Source: a virus
Taxonomy: Duplodnaviria > Heunggongvirae > Uroviricota > Caudoviricetes
DNA: 64,000 bases
IMG/VR virus record: IMGVR_UViG_3300048599_000194
Coordinates: 239,177-303,176 of that record
Reading direction: 5' to 3' (one strand)
The position numbers and the translations under genes are program-made. Each line of letters opens with the position of its first letter. Positions within the stretch are counted from its first letter, which is position 1. This document shows positions 7,003 through 58,721 of the stretch, one piece after another. Below the pieces are notes generated by a model. It saw only the letters and a list, made by a program, of their open reading frames with translations, was not told the DNA's origin and did not search any database.

Positions 7003-7017
7003 GTATCGTATTTATCA

Positions 7018-7046: not shown

Positions 7047-7051
7047 TCTTT

Positions 7052-9472: not shown

Positions 9473-9526
9473 ATCTTTATTCTAATTTAGCTCATGGCAA
9501 CCGTCAATATTTTCTAAATAAATCGT

Positions 9527-10621: not shown

Positions 10622-10622
10622 T

Positions 10623-12686: not shown

Positions 12687-12711
12687 CTATCTCCTCCAAG
12701 GTATTATTACT

Positions 12712-12742
12712 AAGGTACTACTAATCTTAAAGATCGTCAACC
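12712..12742 (-). promoter_or_regulatory. promoter-like motif variant (AAGGTACTAC-N14-GTCAACC)
   Basis: Same spacing as canonical instances. Confidence 0.45.
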
Positions 12743-12782
12743 AAATTCTCCAGTAATTTAATTACATGCTAGAATAATTCTT

Positions 12783-27051: not shown

Positions 27052-27073
27052 ATGAACATAGTATGTCCATAAG

Positions 27074-27103
27074 AAGATACTACATGATTATCGACTCGTC
27101 AAC
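27074..27103 (-). promoter_or_regulatory. promoter-like motif
   Basis: AAGATACTAC-N14-GTCAACC ~23 nt upstream of ATG 27051. Confidence 0.55.
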
Positions 27104-27115
27104 CAACTATTTCGA

Positions 27116-28429
27116 CTAAGATGCGAACTTCTGAACAAATGGTAGTTTATTGGCGTCAAACCCATGTATTGTAGCCAGTATTGACAAGTATAGCATCATA
27201 GCGTGATCTTTTCCTTCTTGCGTATTAGATCCCGTTCCAATTAGTTGAATTGCCTTAGACGATCCAACCTTTTTAATATCTAAATTAGGCTTTCTTCCGA
27301 ATTCATCTATTGCATCATCAACATCTCCACTAAGTGAAGTAATTAAAAATCTAAGAGATGGGTTAGATTGGACTGGATGTTCTATTTCCGGTAATATCAT
27401 TAATACACTGAATACCTTAATATCTTCATCCTCGATAAACTTTATTATTGGCTCATATCGACCAATGAATGAAATAGCTATCAAATATTCCTTTGAATTT
27501 AATAGTCTCTCATGAACAATTGAATCTGCACCAAATACAGAGTTAATTCTAGTTTTTAATTCAGCTATCCTATTATCTTCAATGCCCAGATATGAATTGA
27601 CAATCTCAGACATAGTATTCTTAGCCAATTCGACTAGTGAATCCAATCGCTGAAGATAGAATGTTATTAATGGCCTATAGTTATCAATCTCTTCATCAGA
27701 AACTCTATCAGTGAGTAAATCTTCAATTTGATTCATGACCTTGCCAAATAATTTAGGACTTATGGAATGTATTTCATTAATGGTTTCTACGTATGTAGAT
27801 TCGTTTTCAGAAAACATGTCTAGAAGTTTCCGTACAATCTTTTTATTTGATTTCATCGCTTCGTCGTATGACATTGATCGATCTGATGATAATTGATTAT
27901 ACAGATTAATCAACGGTTTGAAGATGCTTACAGGATTTTCTTTGAATTTATCAAATAGTAAAGATATAATCTTAAATCTATCTGAATCTTCTTTCTTGAA
28001 TTCTCCGGTTAATTTTGATAATACCATTCTAAGGTCATTAAATTCACTTTCCGAATTTCTAACACTTGAGATAATTTCTAAATTCTGGCTCGTTTCAATT
28101 ATGTCTACAAGTTCAGATAAAATTCTGATAACCTTAATAGAATTTGGATCTCTAGATTTAACTCCATCAAAACTACCATTCAATATGTCTTGTAATGCAA
28201 CCTTTACTTCATTATTTACTGACCCGTAGAATCTAGAAAGCGCCGGAATTGCATACTTGGCGTGCTCATCCCTGCTACCAAATAATTTCTCATATATTTC
28301 AGAATAATTAACTTCAATTGGCTTATCTAGTTTGATGGATAGCAACACCTTAAACTCATTAATTCCGTCATACACTCCAAAATTCGAAGTAATCTCGTTT
28401 TTTAGCGTGATTAAGTAATTACTCAACAT
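27116..28429 (-). CDS. hypothetical protein
   Basis: 437-aa helical ORF. Confidence 0.5.
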   Translation of the reverse strand: MLSNYLITLKNEITSNFGVYDGINEFKVLLSIKLDKPIEVNYSEIYEKLFGSRDEHAKYAIPALSRFYGSVNNEVKVALQDILNGSFDGVKSRDPNSIKVIRILSELVDIIETSQNLEIISSVRNSESEFNDLRMVLSKLTGEFKKEDSDRFKIISLLFDKFKENPVSIFKPLINLYNQLSSDRSMSYDEAMKSNKKIVRKLLDMFSENESTYVETINEIHSISPKLFGKVMNQIEDLLTDRVSDEEIDNYRPLITFYLQRLDSLVELAKNTMSEIVNSYLGIEDNRIAELKTRINSVFGADSIVHERLLNSKEYLIAISFIGRYEPIIKFIEDEDIKVFSVLMILPEIEHPVQSNPSLRFLITSLSGDVDDAIDEFGRKPNLDIKKVGSSKAIQLIGTGSNTQEGKDHAMMLYLSILATIHGFDANKLPFVQKFAS

Positions 28430-30149
28430 TTTCTACAACTCCTAGTCTATTTTGATTTTCCGTAGTTAGTAAACTTCTATAGTCTAATAAGAATGACTGA
28501 ACTTTTTCGATTTTGTTAGGGTCGCCCTTGGTTTTTCTCATCATCCATGTAATAATATCATCTTGATCTTTAATCAATACTTTCTTAAATAACTGCTCAA
28601 ACAATTTATTCAATTCGATTCCATTTAATGCAACATCATATGCAACGTGAGATAGTACATAAGAAACATCATTGAATAATTCTGGATTTTTCATTGCTGT
28701 CTTTAGAGCATTATAGGTTAAAATATTAATCGCATCGCCTTTATGTTTTCTAACAACTTTCAATATGTCTTCTATAGGGAATGTAGTTTCTGGATGCTTC
28801 GCAAGTCTCTTAACTAGTGAAAAAACTTCCTCTTCATATTCAGTAAGGCTGAAATCTTTTAGTATCGCAAAAACCTTAATGTATTTCTTAGCCAATTCCA
28901 ATTCATTAAGTGATATTGAGGATGAAACTATTGAATTACCTTCAACGCTGAAAGAATATTCTCCTAAATCGAAATTTTCTGGCATTGGCTGATTTGTTAA
29001 TATGCTCGATGCGTTCTTTATCGATTCTATGTCAAGCAACTTAGATGCATGCAATAATAAGTTCTTAGTTCCGAATATTGAATCATATGCATAATAAAAT
29101 CCATACTGAGGAATATTCTTAATTTCACTATACATGTCAATAAAAGTTAATTTAACAGACCCAGATTCACCTAATGCCTTTATTGCATTAGCGGCTGTCT
29201 CAAAATCTATAGATGAAATAGTCGGAATTACAACAGTAAATCCTTGATTGTTTAAGGTTATCTGAAACTCGGCATCAATTTCATTACCCAATTCCAATTT
29301 CAAGTTTGAAACTATTTGATTTTTGTCTTTCTTATTAGTAAATTTAGAATACGATGTAGTTGTATAATTTGAACCTTGCTCTTTTTTTAATAATTCATCG
29401 AAATACGCCAAATATAAAAGTTTAGAAGAAATCTTCTTCAAGTCTCCTCGATTCTCTTCAAAGTAATGACTTACCACATCATAATTCTGACCAGTAATAG
29501 TTTTTAGGGGAGAATCTTCAGTCTTTTTTGATGATAGTGATGCGACTTCATCTAATACGTTTTCAATTAATGTCTGATTCATTACATACGTGGAGTATAA
29601 CTTTTGCTTAAGTTTTCTACTCCTTGCATTTTCCTTGCCATTGTCTAATGTATTAAGATATTCTTCGTATACACTAAACAAGCCATCTAATACTTTTGCC
29701 CTATTATCTTTGAATCTATCATATATTGCTTTAACCTTGTGAAGTACAATCGAACTATCACTTTCAATCAATCGATAAAATTCCAAGAATTTATTTACTG
29801 CTTCGAAATATGTTTTCCCGAGTGATAGCACTGGAGTAAACTCATCAACTATGGAGGATTTATTGGAAAACGGACCTACCAACATAGCGGCGATAGGGTA
29901 TAACACATCCAAAACATCTTCGTATTTTCTATCTAACACTGCCCTGAAAAAAGTGACTACATATGGACGAGTCGCAGATACTATATCTGCGACTTTATCT
30001 ACATTCAACCCTCGAATATATTCTTTGGTAATGTCTGAATTGAACTCAGGATTAAGAGAATTCTCTTTTGAAATTACGGTGAATTGAGATTTAATGTCAA
30101 ATGGAGATTCTTCAAGGGTTGCCGCTTCTGTTAAAACATTTAGTCTCAT
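28419..30149 (-). CDS. hypothetical protein
   Basis: 576-aa ORF. Confidence 0.5.
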   Translation of the reverse strand: MRLNVLTEAATLEESPFDIKSQFTVISKENSLNPEFNSDITKEYIRGLNVDKVADIVSATRPYVVTFFRAVLDRKYEDVLDVLYPIAAMLVGPFSNKSSIVDEFTPVLSLGKTYFEAVNKFLEFYRLIESDSSIVLHKVKAIYDRFKDNRAKVLDGLFSVYEEYLNTLDNGKENARSRKLKQKLYSTYVMNQTLIENVLDEVASLSSKKTEDSPLKTITGQNYDVVSHYFEENRGDLKKISSKLLYLAYFDELLKKEQGSNYTTTSYSKFTNKKDKNQIVSNLKLELGNEIDAEFQITLNNQGFTVVIPTISSIDFETAANAIKALGESGSVKLTFIDMYSEIKNIPQYGFYYAYDSIFGTKNLLLHASKLLDIESIKNASSILTNQPMPENFDLGEYSFSVEGNSIVSSSISLNELELAKKYIKVFAILKDFSLTEYEEEVFSLVKRLAKHPETTFPIEDILKVVRKHKGDAINILTYNALKTAMKNPELFNDVSYVLSHVAYDVALNGIELNKLFEQLFKKVLIKDQDDIITWMMRKTKGDPNKIEKVQSFLLDYRSLLTTENQNRLGVVENVE

Positions 30150-30170: not shown

Positions 30171-30578
30171 TCAGTACCAATATAGCTCAGTTAGCTCTGC
30201 TTTTGTTACATCTGCCTTTGGATCTCGTTCGTGTGTTGGGAAAAAATATATGCATGGATACATATATGATTCATTTTCTCCAGGGAAAACTTTTTCCTCA
30301 TAAAAATGAACGCCCGAATATTCAATGTGATATTTCTCGAATAAAAACTTAATAACGGCTCCGTAGCAATCGCATCCACTAACAACAAAACGGCTTTTCC
30401 ATTTGCTAGTTTCGTGCGAGTCAAATCGACCCCATCTAGAATGATCAATATCCCAAGGCTGAGGATCTGAAACAGAAAATACTACACCTTCGCCTCGACA
30501 AGTAGGGCACAAGTAAGGCTCCCCTTCCAAGTCATATAAGTAAAGTTCTCCATTACCTTTACAATCAGGACACTTCAT
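30171..30578 (-). CDS. hypothetical zinc-ribbon protein
   Basis: CPDCKGNG...CPTCRGEG Cys pairs. Confidence 0.45.
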   Translation of the reverse strand: MKCPDCKGNGELYLYDLEGEPYLCPTCRGEGVVFSVSDPQPWDIDHSRWGRFDSHETSKWKSRFVVSGCDCYGAVIKFLFEKYHIEYSGVHFYEEKVFPGENESYMYPCIYFFPTHERDPKADVTKAELTELYWY

Positions 30579-30961
30579 TGATCACACTCCATGTTAGCAA
30601 GTTCCAAGAGAAAATCTCCATGACATCTACTCGGTGAGCAATAACAGACAAGGTTCTTATCTCTTAATTCTATTTTAGCGCGTTTAATCCTGGAGGGGTC
30701 TTCTAGGAACCATTTAATGTATTTTTCTATCACTTCATCCCTGGTACCATCCTGCCCAATATGAAATGGATTGCCCCAATACGACCCACGCCCAATATAG
30801 ACTGCATCTTTAGGAACTCCATGCACATGTTTATTCAACACTCTAGGTTTAGATTCTCCCTTACCTGAACAACCTCTACAAGTACGATTTTCATATTCTA
30901 ATCCAGCCATGTCAAGATATATTTTTTCAAATCCACTTCCATTACAGATTTTACATTTCAT
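30575..30961 (-). CDS. hypothetical protein with GNPF and CYCSPxxCHGD motifs
   Basis: Start at MKCK; ORF-track N-terminus reads through terminator hairpin and is discarded. Confidence 0.45.
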   Translation of the reverse strand: MKCKICNGSGFEKIYLDMAGLEYENRTCRGCSGKGESKPRVLNKHVHGVPKDAVYIGRGSYWGNPFHIGQDGTRDEVIEKYIKWFLEDPSRIKRAKIELRDKNLVCYCSPSRCHGDFLLELANMECDQ

Positions 30962-30977
30962 CAAAACACTCCATGAA

Positions 30978-31005
30978 CAAAAAAAGGGAGAGGTTACCCT
31001 CTCCC
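30978..31005 (-). terminator. rho-independent-type terminator
   Basis: GGGAGAGG-ttac-CCTCTCCC followed by T7 on minus strand, just after flotillin stop. Confidence 0.65.
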
Positions 31006-31030
31006 TCATTATAACCTGTCTACCAGCGCC

Positions 31031-32968
31031 TTAGGCGACCTTAGCGCCCTTAGCCGCAACCCTGGGGTCTTGGACCTTGGCGGAGTCCTCCAGGATCTCA
31101 GGAACGGTCTTTCCAGTGGCCTGCTGAGATGCCAGCAAACCAAGGAACGACTCCGCCACACTGGTACTTCCATTGCCTCCACCCATGACAATATCAGGCA
31201 CGAGCTTGAGATTACCCTTAGATAGCTTTTCGGCTACCTGAATGGCGGCATAGTTAGACTGACCCATCGCATCAGTCTGCTTTCTGGTGACTTCTGCCTG
31301 TGCCTCACCTTCAAGCGTAATCTTTGCGGCATTCGCCTCAGCAATTAGCTTGATCGAATCGGCTTCATTGGTAGAACGGAGCTTGAGGGCCTGACCTTCG
31401 GAATCAGCCGCGATCTTTCGAGTCTCAGCCTCCGCCTCAGCCCTTGCAATCGAAACCTTCTTATTACCTTCAGCTTCGGCAATCGAAGCGGCGGCTCTCT
31501 GACCTGCAATCTTAACCGCCTGCTCAGACTGAACCACCTCTCGCTGGGAATCGGCAAGTGCAGTCTGACGCTCCTTCTCCTGACGCTTCTCTTCCAGCTT
31601 CATCTGCTGTTCAACCGTAATTGCACCTTCTTCGGCCAACTTACGATCCTGAAGAGTCTTCATCAACTCCGCAGGCGGCTTCATTTCACCAATAAAGGTT
31701 CCGACTCCAACCACATTGTATTCCGCAAGAGCCTTGGAAATATATTCCTGTGCGGCCTGCTGACGCTCCTTACGGGAATTAAAAAACTCCTTAGCGTCAA
31801 TAGACTGAACCGCATTTCGGAAATAGTTTCCGATCATAGGCTCAAGAACCTGAGAAACCAACTGCTTGACATTTCCGAACTGAGCGATGATCTTGGGTGC
31901 CTCGCCGTAAGGAATGTGAATAACCTGCTGAACCTCAAGGGGGAATGTGAATCCGTCCTTGGACTGCACAACAATAGTTCCGAGGTTATTATCTAGGCCG
32001 TGATCCTCATGCTTGTTATTGCTCCAGTTAAGAACAATAGACGAAGTCTGAACATTCTCAACCCGAATAACCGCAGGATTGTAGGGGTAAATACCTGGAT
32101 TCTTGATTACATTCCAGACGCCTCGGCATCCTTCGGCAACCAATTCACCATTCTTGAAAGTATCCCCGGAAACATCTTCTCCGCGAGGTCCAACCGCCGA
32201 AAATACAACTCCAACATGGGCCATTGGAACGGTGATCACATCCTCAATCTTGACAGAGGCAAACCAAGGATTAATAATCCATGCGCCAGATCGAAGAACC
32301 TCTTGCTGAAGACCTCTGCATCCCTTATTGATAATGAATGCCTGAGGATTCTGGAACGATGAGTGTCCATCAACATTAGGAGCGGCAACTTCGCCTTCAG
32401 GTAGTTCAATACCATCAAATGTAGTGACAACGCCAATGTTATTAGCCGGAACTTCAATAATTCGAAGCTGATGCGGCTCAAGTCCAAAATTCTTGCAATT
32501 CTGGGAAGTAATGACAGTGAATAGCGCAGTATTAATGCGATATACACCAGTGGTCAAAACATCAAGTTGCTGACCCTTACATCCATTATTGGTAATGAAT
32601 GTGCGTCCATCCTGGTAGGAATTAGAAAACACACTATCACCAAATCGACGCCCCTTGGGAACCTCTCTACCGTCATTGGCAATCACCAATGCAATTTCAC
32701 CCTTAGGGACTGCGACTAGATTAACCTTATCAACGCTATACTGCCACGGCCAGTAGAAAAAGTGCCATCCCGGAGCGAGAGTATCAACCTGAATACCTGC
32801 CTCACCTTCAAGCGCAACAATTCTACCGTTCTGAAGACTCTTACCGAAGTTCTTCGAAACAATACCCACCTTATCCTCGTTAATGATAACGAGTCCAATC
32901 GCCCATCCAAGGAATGCAATTCCTACAATAGCGACAAGTGCAATGATTCCAATCATGAGAAGACTCAT
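31031..32968 (-). CDS. flotillin/SPFH (band-7) family protein
   Basis: N-terminal TM then SPFH region; C-terminal Ala/Glu-rich coiled-coil repeats typical of flotillin/YqiK; 3' third is GC-rich (~58%). Confidence 0.65.
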   Translation of the reverse strand: MSLLMIGIIALVAIVGIAFLGWAIGLVIINEDKVGIVSKNFGKSLQNGRIVALEGEAGIQVDTLAPGWHFFYWPWQYSVDKVNLVAVPKGEIALVIANDGREVPKGRRFGDSVFSNSYQDGRTFITNNGCKGQQLDVLTTGVYRINTALFTVITSQNCKNFGLEPHQLRIIEVPANNIGVVTTFDGIELPEGEVAAPNVDGHSSFQNPQAFIINKGCRGLQQEVLRSGAWIINPWFASVKIEDVITVPMAHVGVVFSAVGPRGEDVSGDTFKNGELVAEGCRGVWNVIKNPGIYPYNPAVIRVENVQTSSIVLNWSNNKHEDHGLDNNLGTIVVQSKDGFTFPLEVQQVIHIPYGEAPKIIAQFGNVKQLVSQVLEPMIGNYFRNAVQSIDAKEFFNSRKERQQAAQEYISKALAEYNVVGVGTFIGEMKPPAELMKTLQDRKLAEEGAITVEQQMKLEEKRQEKERQTALADSQREVVQSEQAVKIAGQRAAASIAEAEGNKKVSIARAEAEAETRKIAADSEGQALKLRSTNEADSIKLIAEANAAKITLEGEAQAEVTRKQTDAMGQSNYAAIQVAEKLSKGNLKLVPDIVMGGGNGSTSVAESFLGLLASQQATGKTVPEILEDSAKVQDPRVAAKGAKVA

Positions 32969-33244: not shown

Positions 33245-34006
33245 TTAGAATGTGAAACTCTGACCCTTTGTGACAAATCCATTAAATCCATCTGCGATTG
33301 CATCCGGCTTATCTCCCGGCTGATAATGGTAAAGCCACATCTTAGATTTGGTATTCTCAGGGAGATTCTTCAAATCAGAATAATGTGCATGCACTCCGCT
33401 CTTGAATGGTGCAGTTTCACTATCATGGAAAATGACATCTGCCATATCATAAAACTTAGTCAATTGATTTGGAGCAAACTGAGTATCTCCGGTGAAGAAA
33501 ATAGTTGGCGCTCCGACCACCATATCTTGAATCATGTAGCCGTAAGACTCAACGATCTTAAATCCATTCATGACATGAACCGTCTGAACCGGACGGAATT
33601 GAATTCCTTCCCATTCAAAAGTCTCATTAGGGCTGACAAGATTAAGTGGAAAATAATCTTCCAACTTTAGCATCTTACCTTCGACCGATTCAAGGCCACC
33701 TGCAAGGGACTTATTCCAAATATCATGGAGAAGACTACCAACTCCATACAATTCAGGTTTACGACCAGGAACAAAGTATCGAGAGAACGCCAACCACTCA
33801 ACACCACCACAATGATCTGCATGTGCATGAGTAAGAGTAAATGCGTCAATGTCCTTGGCAGACAGACCCAATTCAGCAAGACCGAATCGAGCATCTCCAC
33901 CAATATCGATTAGGAAATTCTTACCATTCTTCTTCACAAGAAGATTGGATTGATAGTATTCCTTGGTAGTAAATGCACTACCACAGCCGACAAATTGAAG
34001 TTCCAT
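33245..34006 (-). CDS. MBL-fold metallo-hydrolase
   Basis: THAHADHCGG (HxHxDH) motif; AAGGAG SD. Confidence 0.65.
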   Translation of the reverse strand: MELQFVGCGSAFTTKEYYQSNLLVKKNGKNFLIDIGGDARFGLAELGLSAKDIDAFTLTHAHADHCGGVEWLAFSRYFVPGRKPELYGVGSLLHDIWNKSLAGGLESVEGKMLKLEDYFPLNLVSPNETFEWEGIQFRPVQTVHVMNGFKIVESYGYMIQDMVVGAPTIFFTGDTQFAPNQLTKFYDMADVIFHDSETAPFKSGVHAHYSDLKNLPENTKSKMWLYHYQPGDKPDAIADGFNGFVTKGQSFTF

Positions 34007-34820: not shown

Positions 34821-35627
34821 TTACGAAACCACTTCAGGAGGCATTGCATATCCGTCCATTTGCGGAACAAACTTAAAGAAATATCCTTTATCTTGTGAGA
34901 GAATCGGACCTTCCTTATCGATCTTCCAGCCACTCTCATCACGAACCACGAATGCTCCACGCTTACAATCGGTCGGATAATCATTCCAATTCTGACCAGC
35001 TTCCACAATCATGTCGTGTAGTTGTGGGATTTTCTTCGACTGTAGCTTTCCGTGACTATATAGAGCGCGAGCAACCATCTGAACCGAGTTCTTAGAAGCA
35101 TCGTTCTGACGCCAAAGAACTGCGTTGTAGGCTTCCCAGCATTCCGAAACAGTGTATGCCCGAGAATCAAAGTGCGCCAACTTCATCTTGGAAATGAAAT
35201 CGTTAATTTCATCTCGACGGTAATCAAGATCAAACTCAAAACTATCATGAATGCACTTCAATAACCACCGTTTGTTGAATTCAGCAGTTGCAATTGCCGC
35301 AGAAACAGAAACCATCTTCTGAAGATTTCCGTCGAACCATTGAGCGGTTCCTCGCTCATCAAAGTCGGTGAGGATCAAAGTGATCTCATCGCTCTGAGTA
35401 TATCCAATCTTGACATTCTGGATATTCTCACAGAGCGCCAAGGTAGTCGCCTGCATGCAATCCATCAAACTTCGATCAAATGGCTTCTCACATCCACGAG
35501 TGAAAGTGTGAAATGACTTTCCGTCGAGTCGAATAATCGTGTAAGTGCGACGAGGAAGATAGTACCGAGTACGATCTTCGTGCATCTTCATCCGATCTCC
35601 GAGAGAATCCTTGCTATTCATAGACAC
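34821..35627 (-). CDS. Thg1-like protein (tRNA-His guanylyltransferase family)
   Basis: RLDGKSFHTF...EKPFD...VKIGYTQSDEITLIL matches Thg1 core RxDGxxFhxF / GQSDE region. Confidence 0.6.
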   Translation of the reverse strand: MSMNSKDSLGDRMKMHEDRTRYYLPRRTYTIIRLDGKSFHTFTRGCEKPFDRSLMDCMQATTLALCENIQNVKIGYTQSDEITLILTDFDERGTAQWFDGNLQKMVSVSAAIATAEFNKRWLLKCIHDSFEFDLDYRRDEINDFISKMKLAHFDSRAYTVSECWEAYNAVLWRQNDASKNSVQMVARALYSHGKLQSKKIPQLHDMIVEAGQNWNDYPTDCKRGAFVVRDESGWKIDKEGPILSQDKGYFFKFVPQMDGYAMPPEVVS

Positions 35628-40877: not shown

Positions 40878-41053
40878 TATGGGTGAACGCTCAAAACCGA
40901 AAGAATATGATGAACTTCCGTCACTTCAGACTCTAATTCTTCATGACATTCTTCATATTCATCGACAGTACCATCACGATTGAGATACACTGTTGCAATT
41001 TCAGTGACGATTCTTGTAATTTTAGCCTTAACTTTTCTAGGTTTTCCAGTCAT
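40878..41053 (-). CDS. small hypothetical protein (58 aa)
   Basis: Read by eye; AAGGAGAT SD; ATGA overlap with upstream stop. Confidence 0.35.
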
Positions 41054-41772
41054 TCGTAAATCTCCTTAATTTCATCCGCTAGTTCTTGGCTAAAACAGTT
41101 ATATTTCTCTAGAATTAGCCTAAGAGATCTAACTTTATCTCTAGTTTTCATGTCTTTAGGGGCGAGCGCCTTAAATTCACTAGAAGTTTTGTTAAATACT
41201 TCTTTGTATCTGGCATTTATTTTATCCCAAAGAATATCAGCGTCATACTGTTCACCTAGTTTACATAGTTCAACCCATAGCCAATTGCTTTCATGATAGT
41301 CATGTATCATACCAGTTCTAGCAATTTGGCTTCCAAACTTAAGAATTCTAATTGAATGAAAAATCGATTTCAGTGCGGCTTTCTTATCGTAATCACCAGA
41401 GATTATTAGTTTCTTTTTCCCTTTAACCCATGAATTATTAGCTATAGTTGAAATTGATTCTCTTAGTCTATTGAGATTTAATCTAAAATGCTTACGGTAA
41501 TCATAAATGTTTGGATACTTAGGATCATCCGTTGGCAGAAATATACATTCGAGGGCCGAAATGTCGTGATTTTCTATCTTACTCAACCATTCTGCATGAG
41601 TGTATATTTGATAGTGGAAATCACCCTCCATGCGAAGAGACGTATCTTTAATTACATTTTCCGGCAGGATCTCGATAATATCGTAATCTGAATCAATACT
41701 TGCAGTTCCATATACTCGGGAACCAAACAAATATCTCGCATTATATTCAACTTTGTTCAATTCAGAAATCAT
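41050..41772 (-). CDS. nucleotidyltransferase-fold protein
   Basis: GSRVYGTASIDSDYD = GS...DxD Pol-beta-type NTase signature. Confidence 0.5.
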   Translation of the reverse strand: MISELNKVEYNARYLFGSRVYGTASIDSDYDIIEILPENVIKDTSLRMEGDFHYQIYTHAEWLSKIENHDISALECIFLPTDDPKYPNIYDYRKHFRLNLNRLRESISTIANNSWVKGKKKLIISGDYDKKAALKSIFHSIRILKFGSQIARTGMIHDYHESNWLWVELCKLGEQYDADILWDKINARYKEVFNKTSSEFKALAPKDMKTRDKVRSLRLILEKYNCFSQELADEIKEIYE

Positions 41773-42170: not shown

Positions 42171-42172
42171 AG

Positions 42173-42255
42173 GGTGTAAGACGGGACTCGAACCCGCAAG
42201 CCTCTCGGCACCAGAGTCACAGTCTGGAATGTTTACCAATTCCATCACCTACACC
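42173..42255 (-). tRNA. tRNA-His(GUG) with encoded G-1
   Basis: Cloverleaf; anticodon loop CUGUGAC; extra 5' G pairs with C73; T-loop TTCGAGT. Confidence 0.8.
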
Positions 42256-42261
42256 ATTAGG

Positions 42262-42600
42262 TCATCTGTAGAGGCACATATGACACCCATGATCTCCATT
42301 TCGATAACCTCTACGGCAAAGAAATGAATACAGGTTGTCGTTCAATATACTCTCAACAAATACAACTCTCGAATATTTATCTGCGAGCTTCTCGATTTCA
42401 TCTAGAAATGAAGAGAAGTATCCCTCTCCGCGAAATTCCTCAACAATTTCAATAGTTGCAAGATCTATTGTATTCCTCATTTGGCCTTCGATTAACCTCT
42501 GAGTTATACGATAGTAGAGATTAAGATGATACTCAGGAAGATAGATCCACTTATTGGTTCTACCACCCAACTTCAACTCATTCTCTATGGCATCAATCAT
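42262..42600 (-). CDS. hypothetical protein (possible GNAT-like)
   Basis: 112-aa ORF; weak resemblance only. Confidence 0.4.
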   Translation of the reverse strand: MIDAIENELKLGGRTNKWIYLPEYHLNLYYRITQRLIEGQMRNTIDLATIEIVEEFRGEGYFSSFLDEIEKLADKYSRVVFVESILNDNLYSFLCRRGYRNGDHGCHMCLYR

Positions 42601-42609
42601 CGTGTATGT

Positions 42610-42640
42610 AAGATACTATGTATGACCTTGTACGTCAACC
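42610..42640 (-). promoter_or_regulatory. promoter-like motif
   Basis: AAGATACTAT-N14-GTCAACC. Confidence 0.55.
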
Positions 42641-42646
42641 ACCTTT

Positions 42647-43144
42647 TCACATTCTATAAATCAAAATTCCAATTTTGAACTCGTGCGGAATTTCAAACTT
42701 CTCCAATACATTCTGCAGATGACGAATCTTCGCAGTATTGTGAATGTCCAAAACAGGAGAATCATACACCCCAAACGTATCGCACATGGAATGTACTTCG
42801 ATGGATTCGCATTCTTCTTCACAGATGTAAATGTGATCATGCTTCACATATCGATGACCTCGAAATTCGGTCGTAATGTTGGTATACGTGTCGAAAAACT
42901 CGTCTTCAGATCCAAATTCATGGAGAAACTCATCCACCTCATCGTAGCAGGTACGCTCAATCTTAGTTTTTGTAGTATACTCCACCTTAGGGGCACCACA
43001 CATGGAACAGAAAGCTCCATCTCCGGACTTCTTATCTCCATGAACATTACACTTAAGTCGAACTTCGAACTTATCTTCTCCAGGTACTCGCATATCTGGA
43101 ACGATAATCATAGGTCCATTGTGAACGTAACAAGAATATCCCAT
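42647..43144 (-). CDS. hypothetical protein
   Basis: 165-aa ORF. Confidence 0.45.
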   Translation of the reverse strand: MGYSCYVHNGPMIIVPDMRVPGEDKFEVRLKCNVHGDKKSGDGAFCSMCGAPKVEYTTKTKIERTCYDEVDEFLHEFGSEDEFFDTYTNITTEFRGHRYVKHDHIYICEEECESIEVHSMCDTFGVYDSPVLDIHNTAKIRHLQNVLEKFEIPHEFKIGILIYRM

Positions 43145-43172
43145 CGTATCCTCCTAGATTTTAGTGTACTAG

Positions 43173-43204
43173 AAAGATACTACGAGAGCCTTAAAATGTC
43201 AACC
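43173..43204 (-). promoter_or_regulatory. promoter-like motif
   Basis: AAGATACTAC-N15-GTCAACC. Confidence 0.55.
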
Positions 43205-43207
43205 GCC

Positions 43208-43774
43208 TCACTGCTCCGTCTTACACTTACATGCATCTTTGGCTAGAAACGATGCTCCATTCGAGATCAGATTAGCCAATTCACGCTTGCTCATGGGGAT
43301 GTCAATGACGCCTGCCCCTGGGATGTTGATTGACACGATAGCCTCTAAATCGTCGCCTGGAGCCTCTTCTGCCGCTTCCTCTACGGATTCTTCGGAGTCC
43401 TCCGCCTTAGTTCCAGGAAGCTCGAAGTGATATGCGCCTTCAAACCACTCAAGATACTCATCAACAATATCCTCAAAATCAGACAATTCAGAGTAAATAA
43501 CAGTTTCTGGGTCTAATTTGAGTGAGAAATTAGTATATAGGATAGCTTCCTGCGCTTGTTCTCCAACTAGAATTGGCTGGCGATTATATCCCTCAGGCAT
43601 CTCAAATTCCTGAAAGTATTCACGAACGGTGTTATGTTTTACAAACACTCCACTAGTACGAACAATCTGAGTGACGTTATATGCAGTAAAAGACTTTCCT
43701 GCATCAACCAACATCTCAACAACGGTCGCAATATTCTGGACGATGTCCTCATTAGTTAAAATCAAATTACTCAT
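43208..43774 (-). CDS. hypothetical acidic protein
   Basis: 188-aa ORF. Confidence 0.45.
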   Translation of the reverse strand: MSNLILTNEDIVQNIATVVEMLVDAGKSFTAYNVTQIVRTSGVFVKHNTVREYFQEFEMPEGYNRQPILVGEQAQEAILYTNFSLKLDPETVIYSELSDFEDIVDEYLEWFEGAYHFELPGTKAEDSEESVEEAAEEAPGDDLEAIVSINIPGAGVIDIPMSKRELANLISNGASFLAKDACKCKTEQ

Positions 43775-43991
43775 TCTCAGTTTTCTCCTTGTTTATTTCT
43801 CTCACTAGTTCAGTCATCTGCTTTTTTTGACTTTTCGTCATAGAGCCGATGATCATCATTAAGTCCACTGGAGGTGGAGGCTTAAACATCACAATATCAT
43901 TCTCGACCCACATTTCGACACCAATTGATTTGATGTGATATAAAAGACTAAGTATGACATTCGTACTCTTTCCATTATTACGCATGCTCAA
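43767..43991 (-). CDS. hypothetical protein
   Basis: 74-aa ORF. Confidence 0.4.
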   Translation of the reverse strand: MSMRNNGKSTNVILSLLYHIKSIGVEMWVENDIVMFKPPPPVDLMMIIGSMTKSQKKQMTELVREINKEKTENE

Positions 43992-45264
43992 ACTCCACCA
44001 AGTACGTTAGGTTAGCTTGATTCACATTATATACAATCATTTCATTATTCTGAACTCCAGACTTACCGCCTACTGCGTAAGTGGAATCATAGCCCTTCAT
44101 TGGAAGATTAGAAGATGATCTGCTAGGAGTATATGCCTTACCCATTGCAACATCTGCCAAGAACATGAAACAATTATTATTGCGCCCTTTACCACTATGC
44201 CAATAACCTGTAGCATAGTTAAGCGACTTTGTGGATTGATCACTGAAATACAATCCATCTCCAAACATTCTACCACATACATGAGGCGCATTTGATCGAG
44301 GGATTACTAGACCTTGTTTCAGAATCGAAAGCACATTAGAAATCTGAGTTCCATGCCAATACTCATTGACATTACCAAGTTTCTTCGCCACTGGCTCAAA
44401 TCGAATAGTAGTTTCTGGCATCTGAACTTCAAACACTCTAAACAGCTTATACGCAGATGAAGAGTGAGAACGATTCAAGGTACTCTTGAACTTTTTCTCG
44501 ATTCTATCAATCACCTTCTTATCAGCGACCAAATTGAGAGATACGTTAAAAATCTTAGGAGTCTCTATATTCTCCACTTCAACAACAGTATCCACCTGAG
44601 AATTGACCATTAGGAGAGACGCTTCGAGCGAATCAAGAATCGAATTCTGCTGGAGAATATCTGCATCTGAAGTGTATAGTTGATCGGGACGGATGCGCAT
44701 CCCAACATTCTGAGGAATGAATGTCAAATACTTCTGAAGCATCTCATGATACTTCGAATCTTCAAACTTCTTTGCAAGAATGAAGTCAGACATAGAAATT
44801 AGGAGTTTTCGCGCAGAAGTGATAGAATTCGAGGATACTATTCCAATCGGAGTACTGAAAAGTCCAGTATCCACGTTATACGTCATCGTAGTAGATGACA
44901 GAATTTCATGGACGTTCATCTTCGCCAGTTGCTTAATCAAATCCCCGACTACCGAGGAATTCGAACCAATCTGAGATACCGCAACGCTCTCCAATGTTGT
45001 GCTTGGGGCAACAGAAACAGATTTACCTGTTTCGATCACATCCTGCTTAACATATCCCTTTGCTTCCTTGGATCTCATTTTTGAGTGAGCCGCTTGAAGA
45101 CCTTTATCATGCGATCCAAAATTCTTGGTGGTCGAATCACCTGCGTATCCAATCCGACCCCATTCAAAAACAACATTTCCATCATCGTGAACGGTGTATT
45201 TCCAGAACTTATTATTGTTTCCTGAAATATTGGTCAAGGTTAATGTTGCAGTTTCAAGTACCAT
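43978..45264 (-). CDS. PARP-like ADP-ribosyltransferase (WGR domain + PARP catalytic domain)
   Basis: N-terminal WGRIGYAGD (WGR); C-terminal YWHGTQ..N..SIL, GRMFGDGLYFSD..SKS..Y, NNEMIVYN match the PARP H-Y-E signature blocks. Confidence 0.65.
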   Translation of the reverse strand: MVLETATLTLTNISGNNNKFWKYTVHDDGNVVFEWGRIGYAGDSTTKNFGSHDKGLQAAHSKMRSKEAKGYVKQDVIETGKSVSVAPSTTLESVAVSQIGSNSSVVGDLIKQLAKMNVHEILSSTTMTYNVDTGLFSTPIGIVSSNSITSARKLLISMSDFILAKKFEDSKYHEMLQKYLTFIPQNVGMRIRPDQLYTSDADILQQNSILDSLEASLLMVNSQVDTVVEVENIETPKIFNVSLNLVADKKVIDRIEKKFKSTLNRSHSSSAYKLFRVFEVQMPETTIRFEPVAKKLGNVNEYWHGTQISNVLSILKQGLVIPRSNAPHVCGRMFGDGLYFSDQSTKSLNYATGYWHSGKGRNNNCFMFLADVAMGKAYTPSRSSSNLPMKGYDSTYAVGGKSGVQNNEMIVYNVNQANLTYLVEFEHA

Positions 45265-45350
45265 TTTCGCCCCTGAATCTATTATAGCATTTTCACGCTA
45301 TGTTGACGTTCTTTGATCGCATTACACACAGCTAATTACAGAAAATCAAA

Positions 45351-45422
45351 TTTCCCCCACAGGATTCGAACCTGTATTCGCGGGACCAAAACCCGCTGTC
45401 CTGCCAATTGGACGAAAGGGAA
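45351..45422 (-). tRNA. tRNA-Gln(UUG)
   Basis: Cloverleaf; anticodon loop UUUUGGU; U1-A72. Confidence 0.75.
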
Positions 45423-45542
45423 GTTAGGATTGGCATGTCCAGTAGGGATTTCACCTACACTGCAGAATCGTCATCCTGACACCTCTAAGCCGAGGCCGCT
45501 ATCATATTCACCCTAAACAGGTCATTTTTGCGTATGGACAAA

Positions 45543-45615
45543 TGCACGATGAGGGACTCGAACCCACGGTGTTCTGCGTGTAGGGCAGATGCTTTAGCCG
45601 CTAAGCTAATCGTGC
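45543..45615 (-). tRNA. tRNA-Val(UAC) (C33 instead of U33)
   Basis: Cloverleaf; anticodon loop CCUACAC; one T-stem mismatch. Confidence 0.55.
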
Positions 45616-45741
45616 ATGGTGACATGGCTAAACCGAAATTCCATGTCGTAAGTTGAGCCGTTATACGGTATAGCTCATCTATTTTTTGAGAGGTTGCAGT
45701 GCATCCACCAAGAACCCACCTCACAAGAATGGGGATGTTCA

Positions 45742-45823
45742 ATTAAAATAGACCGCACAGGACTCGAACCTGTCATCTAGGAGTGTCCACCTAAGCATTG
45801 CCCAGAATGCTCCACCGCCTATC
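45742..45823 (-). tRNA. atypical tRNA-like element (class-II-like; 5' acceptor not resolved)
   Basis: Perfect T-arm ACAGG-TTCGAGT-CCTGT, extra arm, anticodon-like hairpin GCATT-CUGGGCA-AATGC; no partner for 3' acceptor strand. Confidence 0.3.
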
Positions 45824-45825
45824 TA

Positions 45826-45896
45826 ATTGAAGTTGGGACGAGAGGATTCGAACCTCTGTTAACCGAGTCAGAGTCGGCCTTCCTGCCACTAGAAGA
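45826..45896 (-). tRNA. tRNA-Gln(CUG)
   Basis: Cloverleaf; anticodon loop CUCUGAC; U1-A72. Confidence 0.75.
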
Positions 45897-46018
45897 CATC
45901 CCAAGTAAACTGCGCGGAATTCCTATTATCTCATCTTCAGTCTCGGTATTCGCCCCCGATTAATCTGAATACTCCTTCATAGGCGGTTTCGAATTCGTGT
46001 TCCCGCTGACACGCACCT

Positions 46019-46228
46019 TCAACTTACTGTTAATTGTTCCGTCATACTGGTCGATGATCTATATATTAACTGACCTCCATTACTACAGTTTCTAATAACT
46101 CCGAGTCGATATGGAGATGTTCTAGTGAGTTTTAACTTAACGTCACATTCAGAACAGTATCCAGTAGACTCATATGGATCATACGAATTCAACGTACTGA
46201 TTTCTTCTCCGCACATTGGACACTTCAT
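46019..46228 (-). CDS. small zinc-ribbon protein
   Basis: 69-aa ORF with CPMCGEE...CSEC. Confidence 0.4.
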   Translation of the reverse strand: MKCPMCGEEISTLNSYDPYESTGYCSECDVKLKLTRTSPYRLGVIRNCSNGGQLIYRSSTSMTEQLTVS

Positions 46229-46388
46229 TATTTCCTACTTCCCGCATTCACATGGTTCTTTTCCACATCCAGGGCATAAACCCTCTCTTAGTCTCTTATG
46301 TATCTTACATTCTGCAATCGTATCGAATCGAAACGGTCTGCCGTTAATATGAGATGTTCCATCGAGATCCGTCTCTTTTCCAGTTGTT

Positions 46389-46544
46389 CTAGGCTTCCGA
46401 TTCATTCAACAATTCCTCTAATTCTTTTTTCATTCGAATACGAGTCGATCCAGTATCTCGTTCCCTTGGGTCATATGGATCATCGTTAGCACCATATGGT
46501 TTCATTTTAGGTGGAGCGTGTCTTGTTGGCTTATTTCTTTTCAT
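46389..46544 (-). CDS. small hypothetical protein (51 aa)
   Basis: Read by eye; below ORF-track cutoff. Confidence 0.25.
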   Translation of the reverse strand: MKRNKPTRHAPPKMKPYGANDDPYDPRERDTGSTRIRMKKELEELLNESEA

Positions 46545-46563
46545 ATTAACTTCCTTTACTTAG

Positions 46564-46647
46564 TACCGGAGGAGGGACTCGAACCCTCACGCCCTTTCGG
46601 GCAACGGATTTTGAGTCCGTCGCGTCTACCAATTCCGCCACCCCGGC
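46564..46647 (-). tRNA. tRNA-Leu(CAA)
   Basis: Class II cloverleaf; anticodon loop CUCAAAA; resembles E. coli Leu tRNA. Confidence 0.8.
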
Positions 46648-47035
46648 ATCATGGAGTTGAGGGAAATCGAATCCCTGTCCTAAACAGCTTCAAAAAAGAC
46701 ATCTACAAGTTTAGTTTCTATTTTAATCTCACAGAATCAATCGTCTAAAAACAAACTAGAGATTCTGCCAGTCCATTAATCTCGGTTACATGCATGAACT
46801 ACTTTGCAACCTATCCAATATGTTGAACGCTTGCGACTATTATGGAATTTCGTCGTAGCGCCTCGCCGTTACTTAAGCGGCGAGAGCGTAAGAGTAGGAC
46901 TCTTCTGCATTTATTGTTTTCAGGTTTTTACGAGGCCACCTGACCCTCGACTTGCATTCTCATTCTACCCTATTCAGTCGAAACCTTTACAACCCCTTAA
47001 TCCCTTAAAGCGTCAAGTCACGATTTAAGAGAAGT

Positions 47036-47118
47036 GCGCAAGGAGGGACTCGAACCCTCACGCCCGAAAGGGCACTACCACCTCAAAGTAGCGGGTCTAC
47101 CAATTCCCCCACCTGCGC
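47036..47118 (-). tRNA. tRNA-Leu(GAG)
   Basis: Class II; anticodon loop UUGAGGU. Confidence 0.75.
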
Positions 47119-47122
47119 ATAT

Positions 47123-47311
47123 TCACAAATTCAATTCTTTCAAGAATTCTCTCGAAATTTGACGACTACGTCTAATTTCTTCTTCAGTTATTGGAGTTTC
47201 TCTAACAGATTCAGATCTTATTAATCCATTTGAATATCTAGAATTTTCTTCATGTCTTTTCAAGATTCGATCAATTTCTGACATTCCATCATTTTCGTCA
47301 ATGTCGCTCAT
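47123..47311 (-). CDS. small acidic protein (62 aa) between tRNAs
   Basis: Start with GGAGGG SD; longer ORF-track version would overlap a tRNA. Confidence 0.4.
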   Translation of the reverse strand: MSDIDENDGMSEIDRILKRHEENSRYSNGLIRSESVRETPITEEEIRRSRQISREFLKELNL

Positions 47312-47328
47312 CAATATACCCTCCAGAG

Positions 47329-47412
47329 TGCGCAAGGTGGGACTCGAACCCACACGCCCTTACGGGCACCAGATCCTAAGTCTGGCGCGTCTACCAATTC
47401 CGCCACTAGCGC
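47329..47412 (-). tRNA. tRNA-Leu(UAG)
   Basis: Class II; anticodon loop CUUAGGA; U-U at 5-68. Confidence 0.75.
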
Positions 47413-56110: not shown

Positions 56111-56214
56111 TGGGGGAGGCCGGATTCGAACCAACGATCAAGAAGTCGGACCATTGTCTGCTGACGCATTGACTGGCACTGCCTCTTAGCTTTAAGCCTC
56201 TAAGCTACTCCCCC
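56111..56214 (-). ncRNA. oversized tRNA-like RNA (104 nt)
   Basis: Perfect acceptor GGGGGAG/CTCCCCC, canonical D-arm GCTT-AGAGGCTTA-AAGC, T-arm with two G-U pairs; ~48-nt multi-hairpin insert replaces anticodon arm. Confidence 0.35.
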
Positions 56215-56402
56215 ATTTTCCTGAAATCCTACCAGAAAGTGCCGTTTCTAGATAACGACTAAAGATTAAAACACCTTTCTAGCATTTCTCATTCTGACAA
56301 TCTTTCTTGTTGCAAAATGAGTTTTTCGACTTTCCTATTATTCAAATAAGAGGATTGAAAAACAAAGACTGAAAACAACCACTAGTCTAGGATTTCAGGA
56401 AG

Positions 56403-56475
56403 CTGGGGATGCAGGGATCGAACCTGCGACGGGTTGGTTAACAGCCAACTGCTCTACCTACTGAGCTAATCCCCA
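56403..56475 (-). tRNA. tRNA-Asn(GUU)
   Basis: Cloverleaf; anticodon loop CUGUUAA; U1-A72. Confidence 0.8.
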
Positions 56476-56704
56476 ATTTAGTCACAACCCCTGTTTCCAG
56501 AGGCCAAATTAATGTACTTCCTAAATGAAGTTAGAGGGTTCGATGCCTTTATTCATTTAGTTTTCGAAAGTCGTTTTCGTTCGATTTGATGAGGTATTTG
56601 CAGATCGTAAACCGACTGCCAGAGCCTACCCGACTTACTTTTTCGAATGTGGATCCATATCCGTGCCTAAAATCGACAAAGCACTACATTCTAGAAGTAC
56701 AAGT

Positions 56705-56777
56705 GGACACATGTGGGATTCGAACCCACGACATCCTGCGTGCAAGGCAAGCGTTCTACCAACTGAACTAATGGCCC
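56705..56777 (-). tRNA. tRNA-Ala(UGC)-like with mispaired acceptor stem (possible pseudogene)
   Basis: D, anticodon (CUUGCAC) and T arms fold; acceptor has 2 mismatches. Confidence 0.4.
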
Positions 56778-56963
56778 ATTTCAAATGTTCGGAGTTTCCT
56801 GCAATCTTTTTAGAATCTAGACATTGCAATATCGTTGATTCCTGTTAGTGCAGTTTTCGTCTAATAGTCCGAGGGATTAGTGGACTTCAAAGACTTTTTC
56901 GAGTTTCTATACAAAGATGCCGGAAATTTCCCCCGAACGACCTTAACTCTAGAAACTCCGAAG

Positions 56964-57035
56964 TGGAGAAGATGGGACTTGAACCCACAACAATCTGCTT
57001 GCAAAGCAGGCGCTCTACCATTGAGCTACGACCCC
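56964..57035 (-). tRNA. tRNA-Ala(UGC)
   Basis: Anticodon arm CCTGC-UUUGCAA-GCAGA like E. coli alaT; G3-U70 present; two acceptor mismatches. Confidence 0.6.
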
Positions 57036-57198
57036 AGCAACTAATTGTCGATGACCACTACACCAAAATACCTTTCGAGGGGCTATGAGTAGTGTCTTTC
57101 GCTGTTTTGTTTGGTTCCTAACAGTACCTCATGTTTTTCGGATTGCATTTCTGCTAGATTCTATAGCCAAAAAAAGAATCTTCCTAGTCATCGACAAA

Positions 57199-57272
57199 GT
57201 GTGCAAGGGTGGACTCGAACCACCGACCTTCTCCGTATCAGAGAGACGTTCTAACCAACTGAACTACTCGCA
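57199..57272 (-). tRNA. tRNA-Ile(GAU)
   Basis: Cloverleaf; anticodon loop CUGAUAC. Confidence 0.8.
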
Positions 57273-57356
57273 CATTAACGGTTCCAGAGGGAGGACTACC
57301 TCCTATCCAACTAGCTATCTTGGAATTATTCACGAACATTGAATTCGTCTCTGAAG

Positions 57357-57432
57357 TGCCCCAGGTCGGACTCGAACCGACCACCTTTGGATTTTCAGTC
57401 CAACGCTCTGACCTCGTATGAGCTACCGGGGC
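57357..57432 (-). tRNA. tRNA-Phe(GAA)
   Basis: Cloverleaf; anticodon loop CUGAAAA. Confidence 0.8.
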
Positions 57433-57560
57433 ATTGAGTCTTGATGTGTATTTGGCTGACTCTTCGCCATATGTGATGCACATCTCACCTTGCAACATCT
57501 ACCGATTATCTATTGCACGTTCTTTATCAGATTCTTTCGAATCATCCTCGGAAGAAGCAG

Positions 57561-57632
57561 AGCACTGAGTGGGAGTCGAACCCACGTCTTCAGATTGGAA
57601 ATCTGAGATAATAGCCGTTATATGACCAGTGC
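57561..57632 (-). tRNA. tRNA-Gly(UCC)
   Basis: Cloverleaf; anticodon loop UUUCCAA; U73. Confidence 0.8.
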
Positions 57633-57646
57633 ATTGACTATCACAG

Positions 57647-57720
57647 TGCGTTAGGAGGGAATTGAACCCCCGACCTAGAGCTTAGAAGGCTCCCGCTCTA
57701 TCCAACTGAGCTACTAACGC
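57647..57720 (-). tRNA. tRNA-Arg(UCU)
   Basis: Cloverleaf; anticodon loop CUUCUAA. Confidence 0.8.
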
Positions 57721-58283: not shown

Positions 58284-58721
58284 TTATTCATCGTCTTCCC
58301 CGTCCTGATCACAGTTGTATATCCACGGAAATACAAAAGCGCATGCTATTGGAGTTGCAAATGAATTCAATAACTCACTTAGTTCGTCATTAGGTTTATC
58401 TAAACAAGTTAAATCGTCGGCATCTAATACTATATAACCACTATCAATACTCAAATAAATTGTAGTTCCTGTATTATAGAAACAATTTTCATCAAATACA
58501 ATCCACCATTCGAAATCATCAATTATTTTCTTACTAGTATTAGTTTTTAGTTCACTTCCGCATATTTTACAAAATTTCCCATCTTCTTGAATATGTCCAT
58601 TAATACACGTTTTTGTTTTAATGTCTTCATATCCATGTAATTCTATTACTCTTCGCTCAAGTTCACTGAGATTGTCTTTAGTTAGTTCCCATCGAAACCC
58701 AATGTGCAGTTCAGTTTGCAT
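58284..58721 (-). CDS. hypothetical protein with zinc-ribbon and acidic tail
   Basis: 145-aa ORF. Confidence 0.45.
   Translation of the reverse strand: MQTELHIGFRWELTKDNLSELERRVIELHGYEDIKTKTCINGHIQEDGKFCKICGSELKTNTSKKIIDDFEWWIVFDENCFYNTGTTIYLSIDSGYIVLDADDLTCLDKPNDELSELLNSFATPIACAFVFPWIYNCDQDGEDDE

Follow-up and report, generated by a model that had tools for sequence, protein, structure and literature searches.

A PARP1-3-type ADP-ribosyltransferase gene in a compact phage cassette with a previously undescribed partner

The window analysed here is a 64,000-nucleotide stretch of a virus of the Caudoviricetes (IMG/VR record IMGVR_UViG_3300048599_000194, positions 239,177 to 303,176), with a GC content of 39.7% and nearly all of its open reading frames (ORFs) on the minus strand. 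Within it, a gene for a PARP-type ADP-ribosyltransferase (43978..45264, minus strand) is followed by a 72-codon ORF and by a gene for a 188-residue protein, referred to below as the partner. In eukaryotes, PARP signalling has a key part in DNA repair, and PARP relatives also exist in prokaryotes and viruses. The new element at this locus is that the PARP belongs to a translationally coupled cassette with an undescribed partner, which is found beside such enzymes in many phages and bacteria.

Architecture and conservation of the PARP

The PARP gene starts with ATG and encodes 428 residues followed by a stop codon. This agrees with the first-pass annotation of the window, which had named no strand; the plus-strand reading of the same interval is riddled with stop codons. 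Translation and Pfam matching delimit a WGR domain, a helical regulatory domain and an ADP-ribosyltransferase (ART) catalytic domain, all given here in minus-strand coordinates. The WGR domain occupies residues 6-74 (45043..45249; PF05406, E = 2.1e-16, 60.2 bits against a cutoff of 22) and includes the W35-G36-R37 motif, with codons verified in the window at 45154-45162, inside the FEWGRIGYAG string already recognized in the first reading and now placed at residues 33-42. The ART domain spans residues 253-426 (43987..44508; PF00644, E = 2.2e-31, 109.4 bits against a cutoff of 26.7), and both profile matches, which had been proposed as a check, are far above their cutoffs. Between the two lies a domain missing from the earlier account, PARP_reg, at residues 107-214 (44623..44946; PF02877, E = 1.7e-6). 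This region aligns to the helical domain of PARP1 in phmmer and is helical in the structural model over approximately residues 91-223. The PARP_reg helical domain is the autoinhibitory module of PARP1-3, and with it the protein has the make-up of a gated enzyme of the PARP1-3 type and not that of a free effector resembling a toxin.

The catalytic triad comprises His304 (codon 44353-44355), Tyr339 (44248-44250) and Glu408 (44041-44043), each verified in the window on the minus strand; in the phmmer alignment, these residues pair with H862, Y896 and E988 of PARP1. The three catalytic blocks proposed from the sequence were located at residues 302-307 (YWHGTQ), 331-350 (GRMFGDGLYFSDQSTKSLNY) and 406-413 (NNEMIVYN). 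One detail of the middle block needed correction, the "SKS" being in fact S-T-K-S, while the claim of a retained catalytic Glu held. Together with PF00644, the H-Y-E triad, the N-terminal WGR domain and the PARP_reg domain in between are the features of a Clade-1-like PARP, the type of PARP1-3 and of the bacterial enzymes. Pfam, phmmer and fold matches, as well as the invariance of the triad, confirm a PARP-like ART of the diphtheria-toxin clade with an intact H-Y-E signature.

Searched against the sequences of the PDB with phmmer, residues 5-395 align with the WGR, helical domain (HD) and ART regions of human PARP1 (E = 3e-25), and PARP2, PARP3, PARP4 and the tankyrases are also matched. An AlphaFold2 model built with 64 homologues (pLDDT 81, pTM 0.64) was compared by Foldseek with the DNA-break-bound WGR-CAT structures of PARP1 (4opx, 4dqy), giving TM scores of 0.70-0.71 (E 1e-26), so that the superposition on PARP1 suggested in the first reading also came out positive. 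W-G-R, H862/Y896/E988 and K903/S904/Y907 of human PARP1 all have equivalents in the phage protein. The zinc fingers, the BRCT domain and the N-terminal tail of PARP1 are missing from it, and identity between the two is about 22-25%. Among phage families, the protein falls into PHROG 23333 (E = 3e-65).

Across 64 homologues, which are 44-96% identical, His304, Tyr339, Glu408, the K-S-x-N-Y block (K346/S347/Y350) and the WGR residues Arg37 and Gly39 do not vary. Comparison with the 94%-identical PARP of locus L143 gave a dS of 0.72, a dN of 0.036 and a dN/dS of 0.05. Given the invariant active-site and WGR residues and this low ratio, the PARP gene is functional and under purifying selection.

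A phage PARP as such is not new, given the earlier reports of phage and bacterial PARPs and the 2,570 homologues that a database search returned at E ≤ 1e-5; the present locus adds nothing to the statement that phages have PARPs. PARP genes with a conserved H-Y-E triad were described in Aeromonas phage Aeh1 and Cellulophaga phage phi4:1 by Perina et al. in 2014 (PMC4245714). Eukaryote-type PARPs were reported in a few jumbo phages by Iyer et al. in 2021, who cited BBA65562.1 (PMC7824862), and "PARP1" appears in a 2024 study as one of the NAD-dependent enzymes that jumbo phages of the gut encode (PMC11662467). Full-length homologues of the window PARP, with 32-39% identity and 98-100% coverage, are encoded by Xanthomonas phage XacN1, by Xoo-sp13 and by the Klebsiella phages FBKp34 and 05F01. 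These are jumbo or large myoviruses whose genes are annotated as poly(ADP-ribose) polymerase, and they are only distant relatives; the XacN1 protein, ORF414 (BBA65562.1, annotated "poly (ADP-ribose) polymerase"), is 39% identical over its full length. The Cellulophaga copies (phi4:1) match in the catalytic domain only. Relatives of 45-96% identity come from metagenomes only, and essentially all of the approximately 130 homologues examined keep both the WGR and the helical domain.

The closest parallels by description are two cellular enzymes, HaPARP (Herpetosiphon aurantiacus Haur_4763) and CdPARP (C. difficile CD160), which share the domain layout, a length of approximately 430-450 residues and the H-Y-E triad. 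With their WGR-PARP_reg-PARP_cat arrangement, both auto-PARylate in vitro only with activated DNA (PMC5966428, PMC4245714, PMC8120803), and both are blocked by PARP inhibitors (PMC5966428). NAD+-dependent ADP-ribosyl transfer triggered by nucleic-acid breaks is documented only for these two enzymes and human PARP1-3 (PMC5966428). A partner gene has been described for neither.

The cassette and its partner gene

Between a tRNA-Gln gene (45351-45422) and the PARP gene, the sequence shows an extended -10 promoter-like element, TGCTATAAT, at 45281..45289 (minus strand), 16 nt before the PARP start codon; it is a consensus match only and, having no -35 hexamer, was not listed by the promoter scan. 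The 72-codon ORF (43767..43985, minus strand) overlaps both of its neighbours: its ATG (43985) overlaps the PARP stop codon (TAA, 43978-43980) in ATGCGTAA, and its own stop codon overlaps the ATG (43774) of the partner gene in ATGAGTAA. The partner gene (188 residues, 43208..43774, minus strand) is preceded by an AAGGAG ribosome-binding site. Directly after its stop codon, a promoter scan found the promoter-like element TTGACA-17-TATCTT (43174..43202, minus strand), again a consensus match only, which is followed by AGGAGG for the next gene. The overlapping stops and starts and the flanking promoter-like elements thus delimit a clean, compact three-gene cassette.

Searches of Pfam, PHROG, NCBIfam and PADLOC returned nothing for the 72-residue ORF. 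Locus L145 has a homologue of it in the same position, 67 residues long and with a shared F.PPPPV motif, but L143 and L144 have none, which makes the ORF an optional third gene. Just 3′ of the cassette, a 165-residue gene (42647-43144, minus strand) carries a zinc-ribbon-like CxxH...CxxCG motif. A syntenic homologue of 161 residues, 31-34% identical, is found in L145 (2271-2756), and a similar Cys motif occurs in a second ORF of the window (145 residues, 58284-58721, minus strand).

In its AlphaFold2 model (pLDDT 74, approximately 90 for the N-terminal module), the partner is predicted to consist of a module at residues ~8-81, formed by three helices and a β-hairpin, then a long helix (97-115), an acidic disordered linker (122-142, with Asp or Glu at 10 of its 21 positions) and a C-terminal β-β-α unit (145-171). 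The model suggests a winged-helix-like fold for the N-terminal module. This module had no match in Pfam, NCBIfam, PHROG or PADLOC; a sequence-profile search of the PDB gave no meaningful relative of the partner, and tblastn gave no match in cultured phages.

A hidden Markov model (HMM) was started from residues 1-110 of the partner and run in iterations, until convergence, against all ORFs of the window and of 133 fetched PARP loci. The partner is present in 59 of these 134 loci, which include 45 of the 85 viral and 14 of the 49 cellular ones, with one match per locus. It always lies on the strand of the PARP and is downstream of it in 58 of the 59 loci; its start is within 100 nt of the PARP stop codon in 29 loci and within 1 kb in 46. 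When the PARPs are clustered at 60% identity, the pairing occurs in 35 of 67 clusters; at 50% identity it is still found in 14 of 27, and is therefore not the effect of a single clade.

The association was also recovered from the side of the partner. A reverse look-up with partner homologues found by sequence alone placed a WGR-PARP upstream in three of three lineages, either adjacent (L134-L136) or two genes away (L137). A PARP-blind scan of 2.9 million viral contigs, in which the peptide pattern F-T-A-[YF]-D-[VI]-T-x-x-[LIVM]-R was sought as a degenerate DNA motif, gave 10 matches. Nine of them are on contigs encoding a PARP, which lies directly upstream in seven, and one match (L155) revealed a PARP that the first scan had missed. 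Regarding the size of the family, a single-sequence search returned 10 close relatives, a word-index profile search 27 and an exhaustive HMM search 1,156 representative clusters at E ≤ 1e-3. A large uncharacterised family, of about 1,150 representative clusters, is thereby genetically tied to WGR-PARPs in phages and bacteria.

The two ends of the partner differ in their properties. The N-terminal module is acidic in 41 of 53 members (median isoelectric point 5.2), and the C-terminal parts are variable, mostly basic, and in many relatives read as SpoVT/AbrB/MazE-type domains. The tail of the window partner is rich in Glu and Asp, with a net charge of -19, and contains no full AbrB domain. Between the window and L143, the partner is 47% identical against 94% for the PARP, and the L143 partner is nearly identical to that of L001, a syntenic metagenomic contig of 94 kb whose PARP is 80% identical to that of the window. 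The partner therefore diverges or recombines much faster than the PARP. Since the N-terminal module is conserved as acidic and the tails are variable and mostly basic, the module is most likely a PARP-docking element and the tail a variable nucleic-acid tether or acceptor. If prokaryotic PARPs have a substrate, an adaptor or a regulator that is still missing from the picture, the partner is a concrete candidate for it.

Two further arrangements were observed around the partner. In L115-L120 (Abditibacterium and related genomes, ~9350-13500), the partner module forms the N-terminus of proteins of 1,260-1,330 residues encoded directly downstream of the PARP. The remainder of these proteins gave only weak HEAT/ARM-like matches (PADLOC HEAT-ARM_XIII, E 9e-7), and by BLAST it clusters with GHKL-like proteins of ~890 residues encoded near PARPs in seven viral loci. 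In L134-L136 (~5100-5600), which are three related contigs, the PARP and partner genes are followed at a distance of a few genes by one for an HD_4 protein (RelA/SpoT-type HD hydrolase); the window also has an HD_4 gene (22419-22979), 21 kb from its pair.

Proposed break gating and competing readings

The neighbours of the 134 PARP loci were clustered, and representatives were checked with Pfam. A T4-type RNA ligase 1 (PF09511) lies upstream on the same strand in 18 loci, at a median distance of 674 nt. Other recurrent neighbours are an ATP-dependent DNA ligase (14 loci), topoisomerase II subunits (10-12 loci) and a PNK-like P-loop kinase (9 loci). At least three tRNA genes occur within 8 kb of the PARP in 22 of 85 viral loci, and at least one of RNA ligase 1, DNA ligase, kinase or tRNA array accompanies it in 55 of the 85. 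Single loci add to this picture, with an RNA ligase and PNKP in L002 and L003, a CCA-adding enzyme in L004, and a PARP flanked by DUF7352 and KptA/Tpt1 in L007, on a Pseudomonas megaplasmid. Counted without a genome-wide background, these frequencies are suggestive, and the recurrent ligase and tRNA context leads to a testable hypothesis on the type of break sensed by the enzyme.

Some other neighbours were considered and set aside. A vWA-domain gene (XacN1 and a cluster of 10 loci) and homing endonucleases (GIY-YIG, HNH) are recurrent and were judged incidental or mobile. DUF7352 (~200 residues) directly precedes the PARP in five fetched loci, namely L005 and L006 (JGI contigs of 1.1 Mb), L007 and L008 (the 910 kb plasmid of Pseudomonas sp. 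FeN3W) and L131, and overlaps it by 1 nt in L007. It is a candidate for a second, different PARP partner; no literature on it was found, and having no counterpart in the window it was rejected as part of the locus described here. KptA/Tpt1 and DUF4262 come after the PARP of L007, adjoining a Ter/TerD cluster. In L005 (~3300-7200) and L006, about 22 tRNA genes stand next to the PARP, with a phage-type integrase and an MksBEF operon nearby. Such a tRNA-rich stretch is unusual for a bacterial chromosome and may belong to a megaplasmid, a megaphage or an integrated element.

Taken together, we consider it probable that the gene encodes a catalytically competent, break-gated ADP-ribosyltransferase of the PARP1-3 type, used by a large phage together with a dedicated partner. 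By homology with PARP1/2/3, HaPARP and CdPARP, the WGR domain would bind a nucleic-acid break, and this binding would relieve the autoinhibition exerted by the helical domain. The H-Y-E site could then transfer ADP-ribose from NAD+, as single units or chains, onto the enzyme itself and onto nearby acceptors. The PARP, the 72-residue ORF and the partner would be expressed as one translationally coupled cassette, the acidic winged-helix-like module of the partner docking to the PARP and its tail supplying a nucleic-acid tether or an acceptor. The role would be break or end signalling during infection, in connection with ligases and tRNA repair, whose genes are recurrent neighbours of PARPs in phages. 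Because the WGR and helical domains are kept in essentially all relatives, a gated enzyme of the PARP1-3/HaPARP type is favoured over a constitutive effector of the Alt/Mod kind.

Several observations weigh against this interpretation. The PF02877 match is marginal (28.6 bits against a cutoff of 26.8). In the phmmer alignments, an insertion of ~30 residues that precedes the catalytic Glu in PARP1 is missing from the phage protein, whose C-terminal half instead aligns without interruption to PARP4, a mono-transferase, and to tankyrase, a poly-transferase. The H-Y-E triad is necessary but not sufficient for chain formation, PARP3 and PARP4 being mono-transferases that have it. The sequence thus fits poly- as well as mono-ADP-ribosylation, even with the retained Glu, from which a possible poly activity had earlier been proposed. 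The partner is absent from about half of the PARP loci, including those of the cultured phages XacN1, FBKp34 and RAS14, and is therefore not obligatory for PARP function. The adjacency of ligase and tRNA genes could reflect a shared early or accessory location, and some of the loci are phylogenetically related. No PARG (PF05028/PF10021), Macro (PF01661) or ARH (PF03747) domain was matched at E ≤ 1e-4 among the 96 ORFs of the window, all scanned with Pfam as concatenated pseudo-proteins, whereas the cellular HaPARP and CdPARP have PARG in the same genomes. Finally, no experimental work on any phage PARP was found in the literature.

The first-pass annotation had instead proposed a host-takeover effector. 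In such a reading, the enzyme would act like T4 Alt, ModA and ModB and redirect the cell by ADP-ribosylating host RNA polymerase, translation factors or other host proteins early in infection, with no special role for breaks. The gene does lie in a non-structural accessory block with the anti-defence genes NADAR and Apyc1, the latter an anti-Pycsar cyclic-nucleotide phosphodiesterase with a counter-defence function (33245-34006, minus strand, E 2e-27), and the σ70-like extended -10 element, as a consensus match, fits early transcription by the host RNA polymerase. The T4 enzymes are also phage-encoded NAD+-dependent ARTs. However, they are mono-ARTs of the R-S-E (cholera-toxin) clade without WGR or helical gating domains, and no sequence relation of the PARP to them was detected; the earlier statement that the fold differs from Alt/Mod is supported by PMC8120803 and by what is established for these families. 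A free effector needs no gate, yet gating by WGR and helical domains is maintained throughout the ~130 homologues; there is no sign of virion packaging, and the recurrent neighbours are ligases and tRNA genes rather than transcription-takeover factors. Host takeover is thus rather unlikely, and is not the best fit to a WGR-HD-gated enzyme.

A second alternative keeps the gating and changes the break, the WGR domain sensing the 5′-phosphorylated breaks that anticodon nucleases of the host leave in RNA or tRNA and the PARP marking or capping these ends or recruiting RNA ligase and PNK. It draws on the RNA ligase 1 genes directly upstream in 18 loci, the PNK-like kinase in nine, the RNA ligase-PNKP combination of L002 and L003, the KptA/Tpt1 gene directly downstream in L007 and the viral loci with at least three tRNA genes. 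In the window itself, the PARP is one of the outermost genes of the array of 40 tRNA genes and a tmRNA, which also includes genes for Thg1-like, TilS-like and CCA-adding enzymes, and some PARPs and Tpt1 are known to ADP-ribosylate 5′-phosphate RNA ends (PMC12945103). On the other hand, the PARPs known to modify RNA (PARP10, 11, 14 and 15) have no WGR domain, while PARP1-3, which do have one, respond to breaks in DNA, and it was DNA that activated HaPARP and CdPARP. Moreover, DNA ligase and topoisomerase II genes are found just as often near the PARPs, and the adjacency may simply follow from a shared early region. We regard a specific response to RNA breaks as unlikely. Equally doubtful is a more elaborate version, in which the PARP and its partner would form an undescribed two-component nucleic-acid-break module of large phages and some bacteria, wired into phage tRNA and RNA repair. 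The WGR domain would here sense the 5′-phosphate ends of tRNA or RNA cleaved, or of phage DNA nicked, by host defence nucleases, and the PARP would ADP-ribosylate the partner or the ends, protecting them or passing them to RNA ligase 1/PNK or DNA ligase.

The AbrB-type tails raise the question of a toxin-antitoxin-like or abortive module, with the PARP as an NAD+-consuming or ADP-ribosylating toxin and the winged-helix/AbrB-type partner as antitoxin and autoregulator. The C-termini of relatives match MazE/SpoVT-AbrB and MraZ antitoxin-type folds, the partner changes much faster than the PARP, and the cellular homologues either reside on megaplasmids or have integrases, an MksBEF island or Ter clusters in their vicinity. 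Against this, no PADLOC defence model was matched by the PARP, the partner or the 72-residue ORF. Moreover, the window partner is strongly acidic with no full AbrB domain, about half of the PARP loci do without a partner, the PARP retains its own autoinhibitory domain and the gene sits inside a co-directional lytic-phage-like block. Such a module is therefore quite improbable.

The pairing of the PARP as writer with the NADAR protein as eraser, also put forward in the first reading, has next to no likelihood: both genes are real and share the window, but the NADAR ORF (9041-9472, minus strand; PF08719, E = 7e-22) is 34.5 kb and about 60 genes away, and known NADAR substrates are not PARP products. 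Every tested NADAR removes base-linked (N-glycosidic) guanosine- or cytidine-ADP-ribose made by DarT1 or pierisin-type ARTs, whereas PARP-type marks, on proteins, 5′/3′-phosphate ends or as adenine chains, are reversed by PARG, TARG1/MacroD and ARH3; phage NADARs counter the host DarTG1 defence (PMC12945103). About 48% of medium and jumbo phages carry a NADAR gene, whether or not they have a PARP (PMC9503650), and the gene of the window is probably an independent anti-DarTG1 gene.

Other genes of the window

The source is an uncultured phage, probably large or jumbo. Among 50,697 phage records, the PARP gene gave no megablast match, and the sole match of the 24 kb around it was a 73-nt tRNA-Leu segment; without a close match for either, the phage is not a known isolate. 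A look-up of contigs by the exact sequence of the window PARP also gave no entry. The cassette lies at one edge of an array of 40 tRNA genes (42172-57720, minus strand), which covers all 20 amino acids and has small ORFs in between. A phage-encoded tmRNA with the tag AEESYSYALAA is found at 46649-46996 (minus strand, Rfam 190 bits). A further tRNA-like Rfam match of 104 nt (56111-56214), missed by ARAGORN, may be an intron-containing or atypical tRNA. Three enzymes of tRNA maturation or repair lie within or flank the array, namely a Thg1-like 3′-5′ nucleotidyltransferase (34821-35627, minus strand, Pfam E 3e-27), a PP-loop TilS-like protein (54898-55503, minus strand, Pfam E 4e-32) and a CCA-adding/poly(A) polymerase-family enzyme matched by Pfam (62889-63941, minus strand).

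An NTP_transf_2/Pol-beta-like protein is encoded at 41050-41772 and a 645-residue SPFH/Band_7 protein at 31031-32968. Next to the latter, Pfam identifies a DUF4326 gene (30575-31009, minus strand), grouped here with the counter-defence genes and belonging to a family for which the processing of ADP-ribose-derived phosphates has been proposed. Further Pfam matches in the window are RNase T, DHH/DHHA1 and R2K ATP-grasp. At 24919-30149 (minus strand), a gene for a 710-residue GHKL-ATPase protein is followed by two ORFs of 437 and 576 residues that matched no family. With 24-29% identity to the rIIA of cultured phages, the GHKL ATPase is distantly related to that protein, and the three genes possibly form an rIIA/rIIB-like block.

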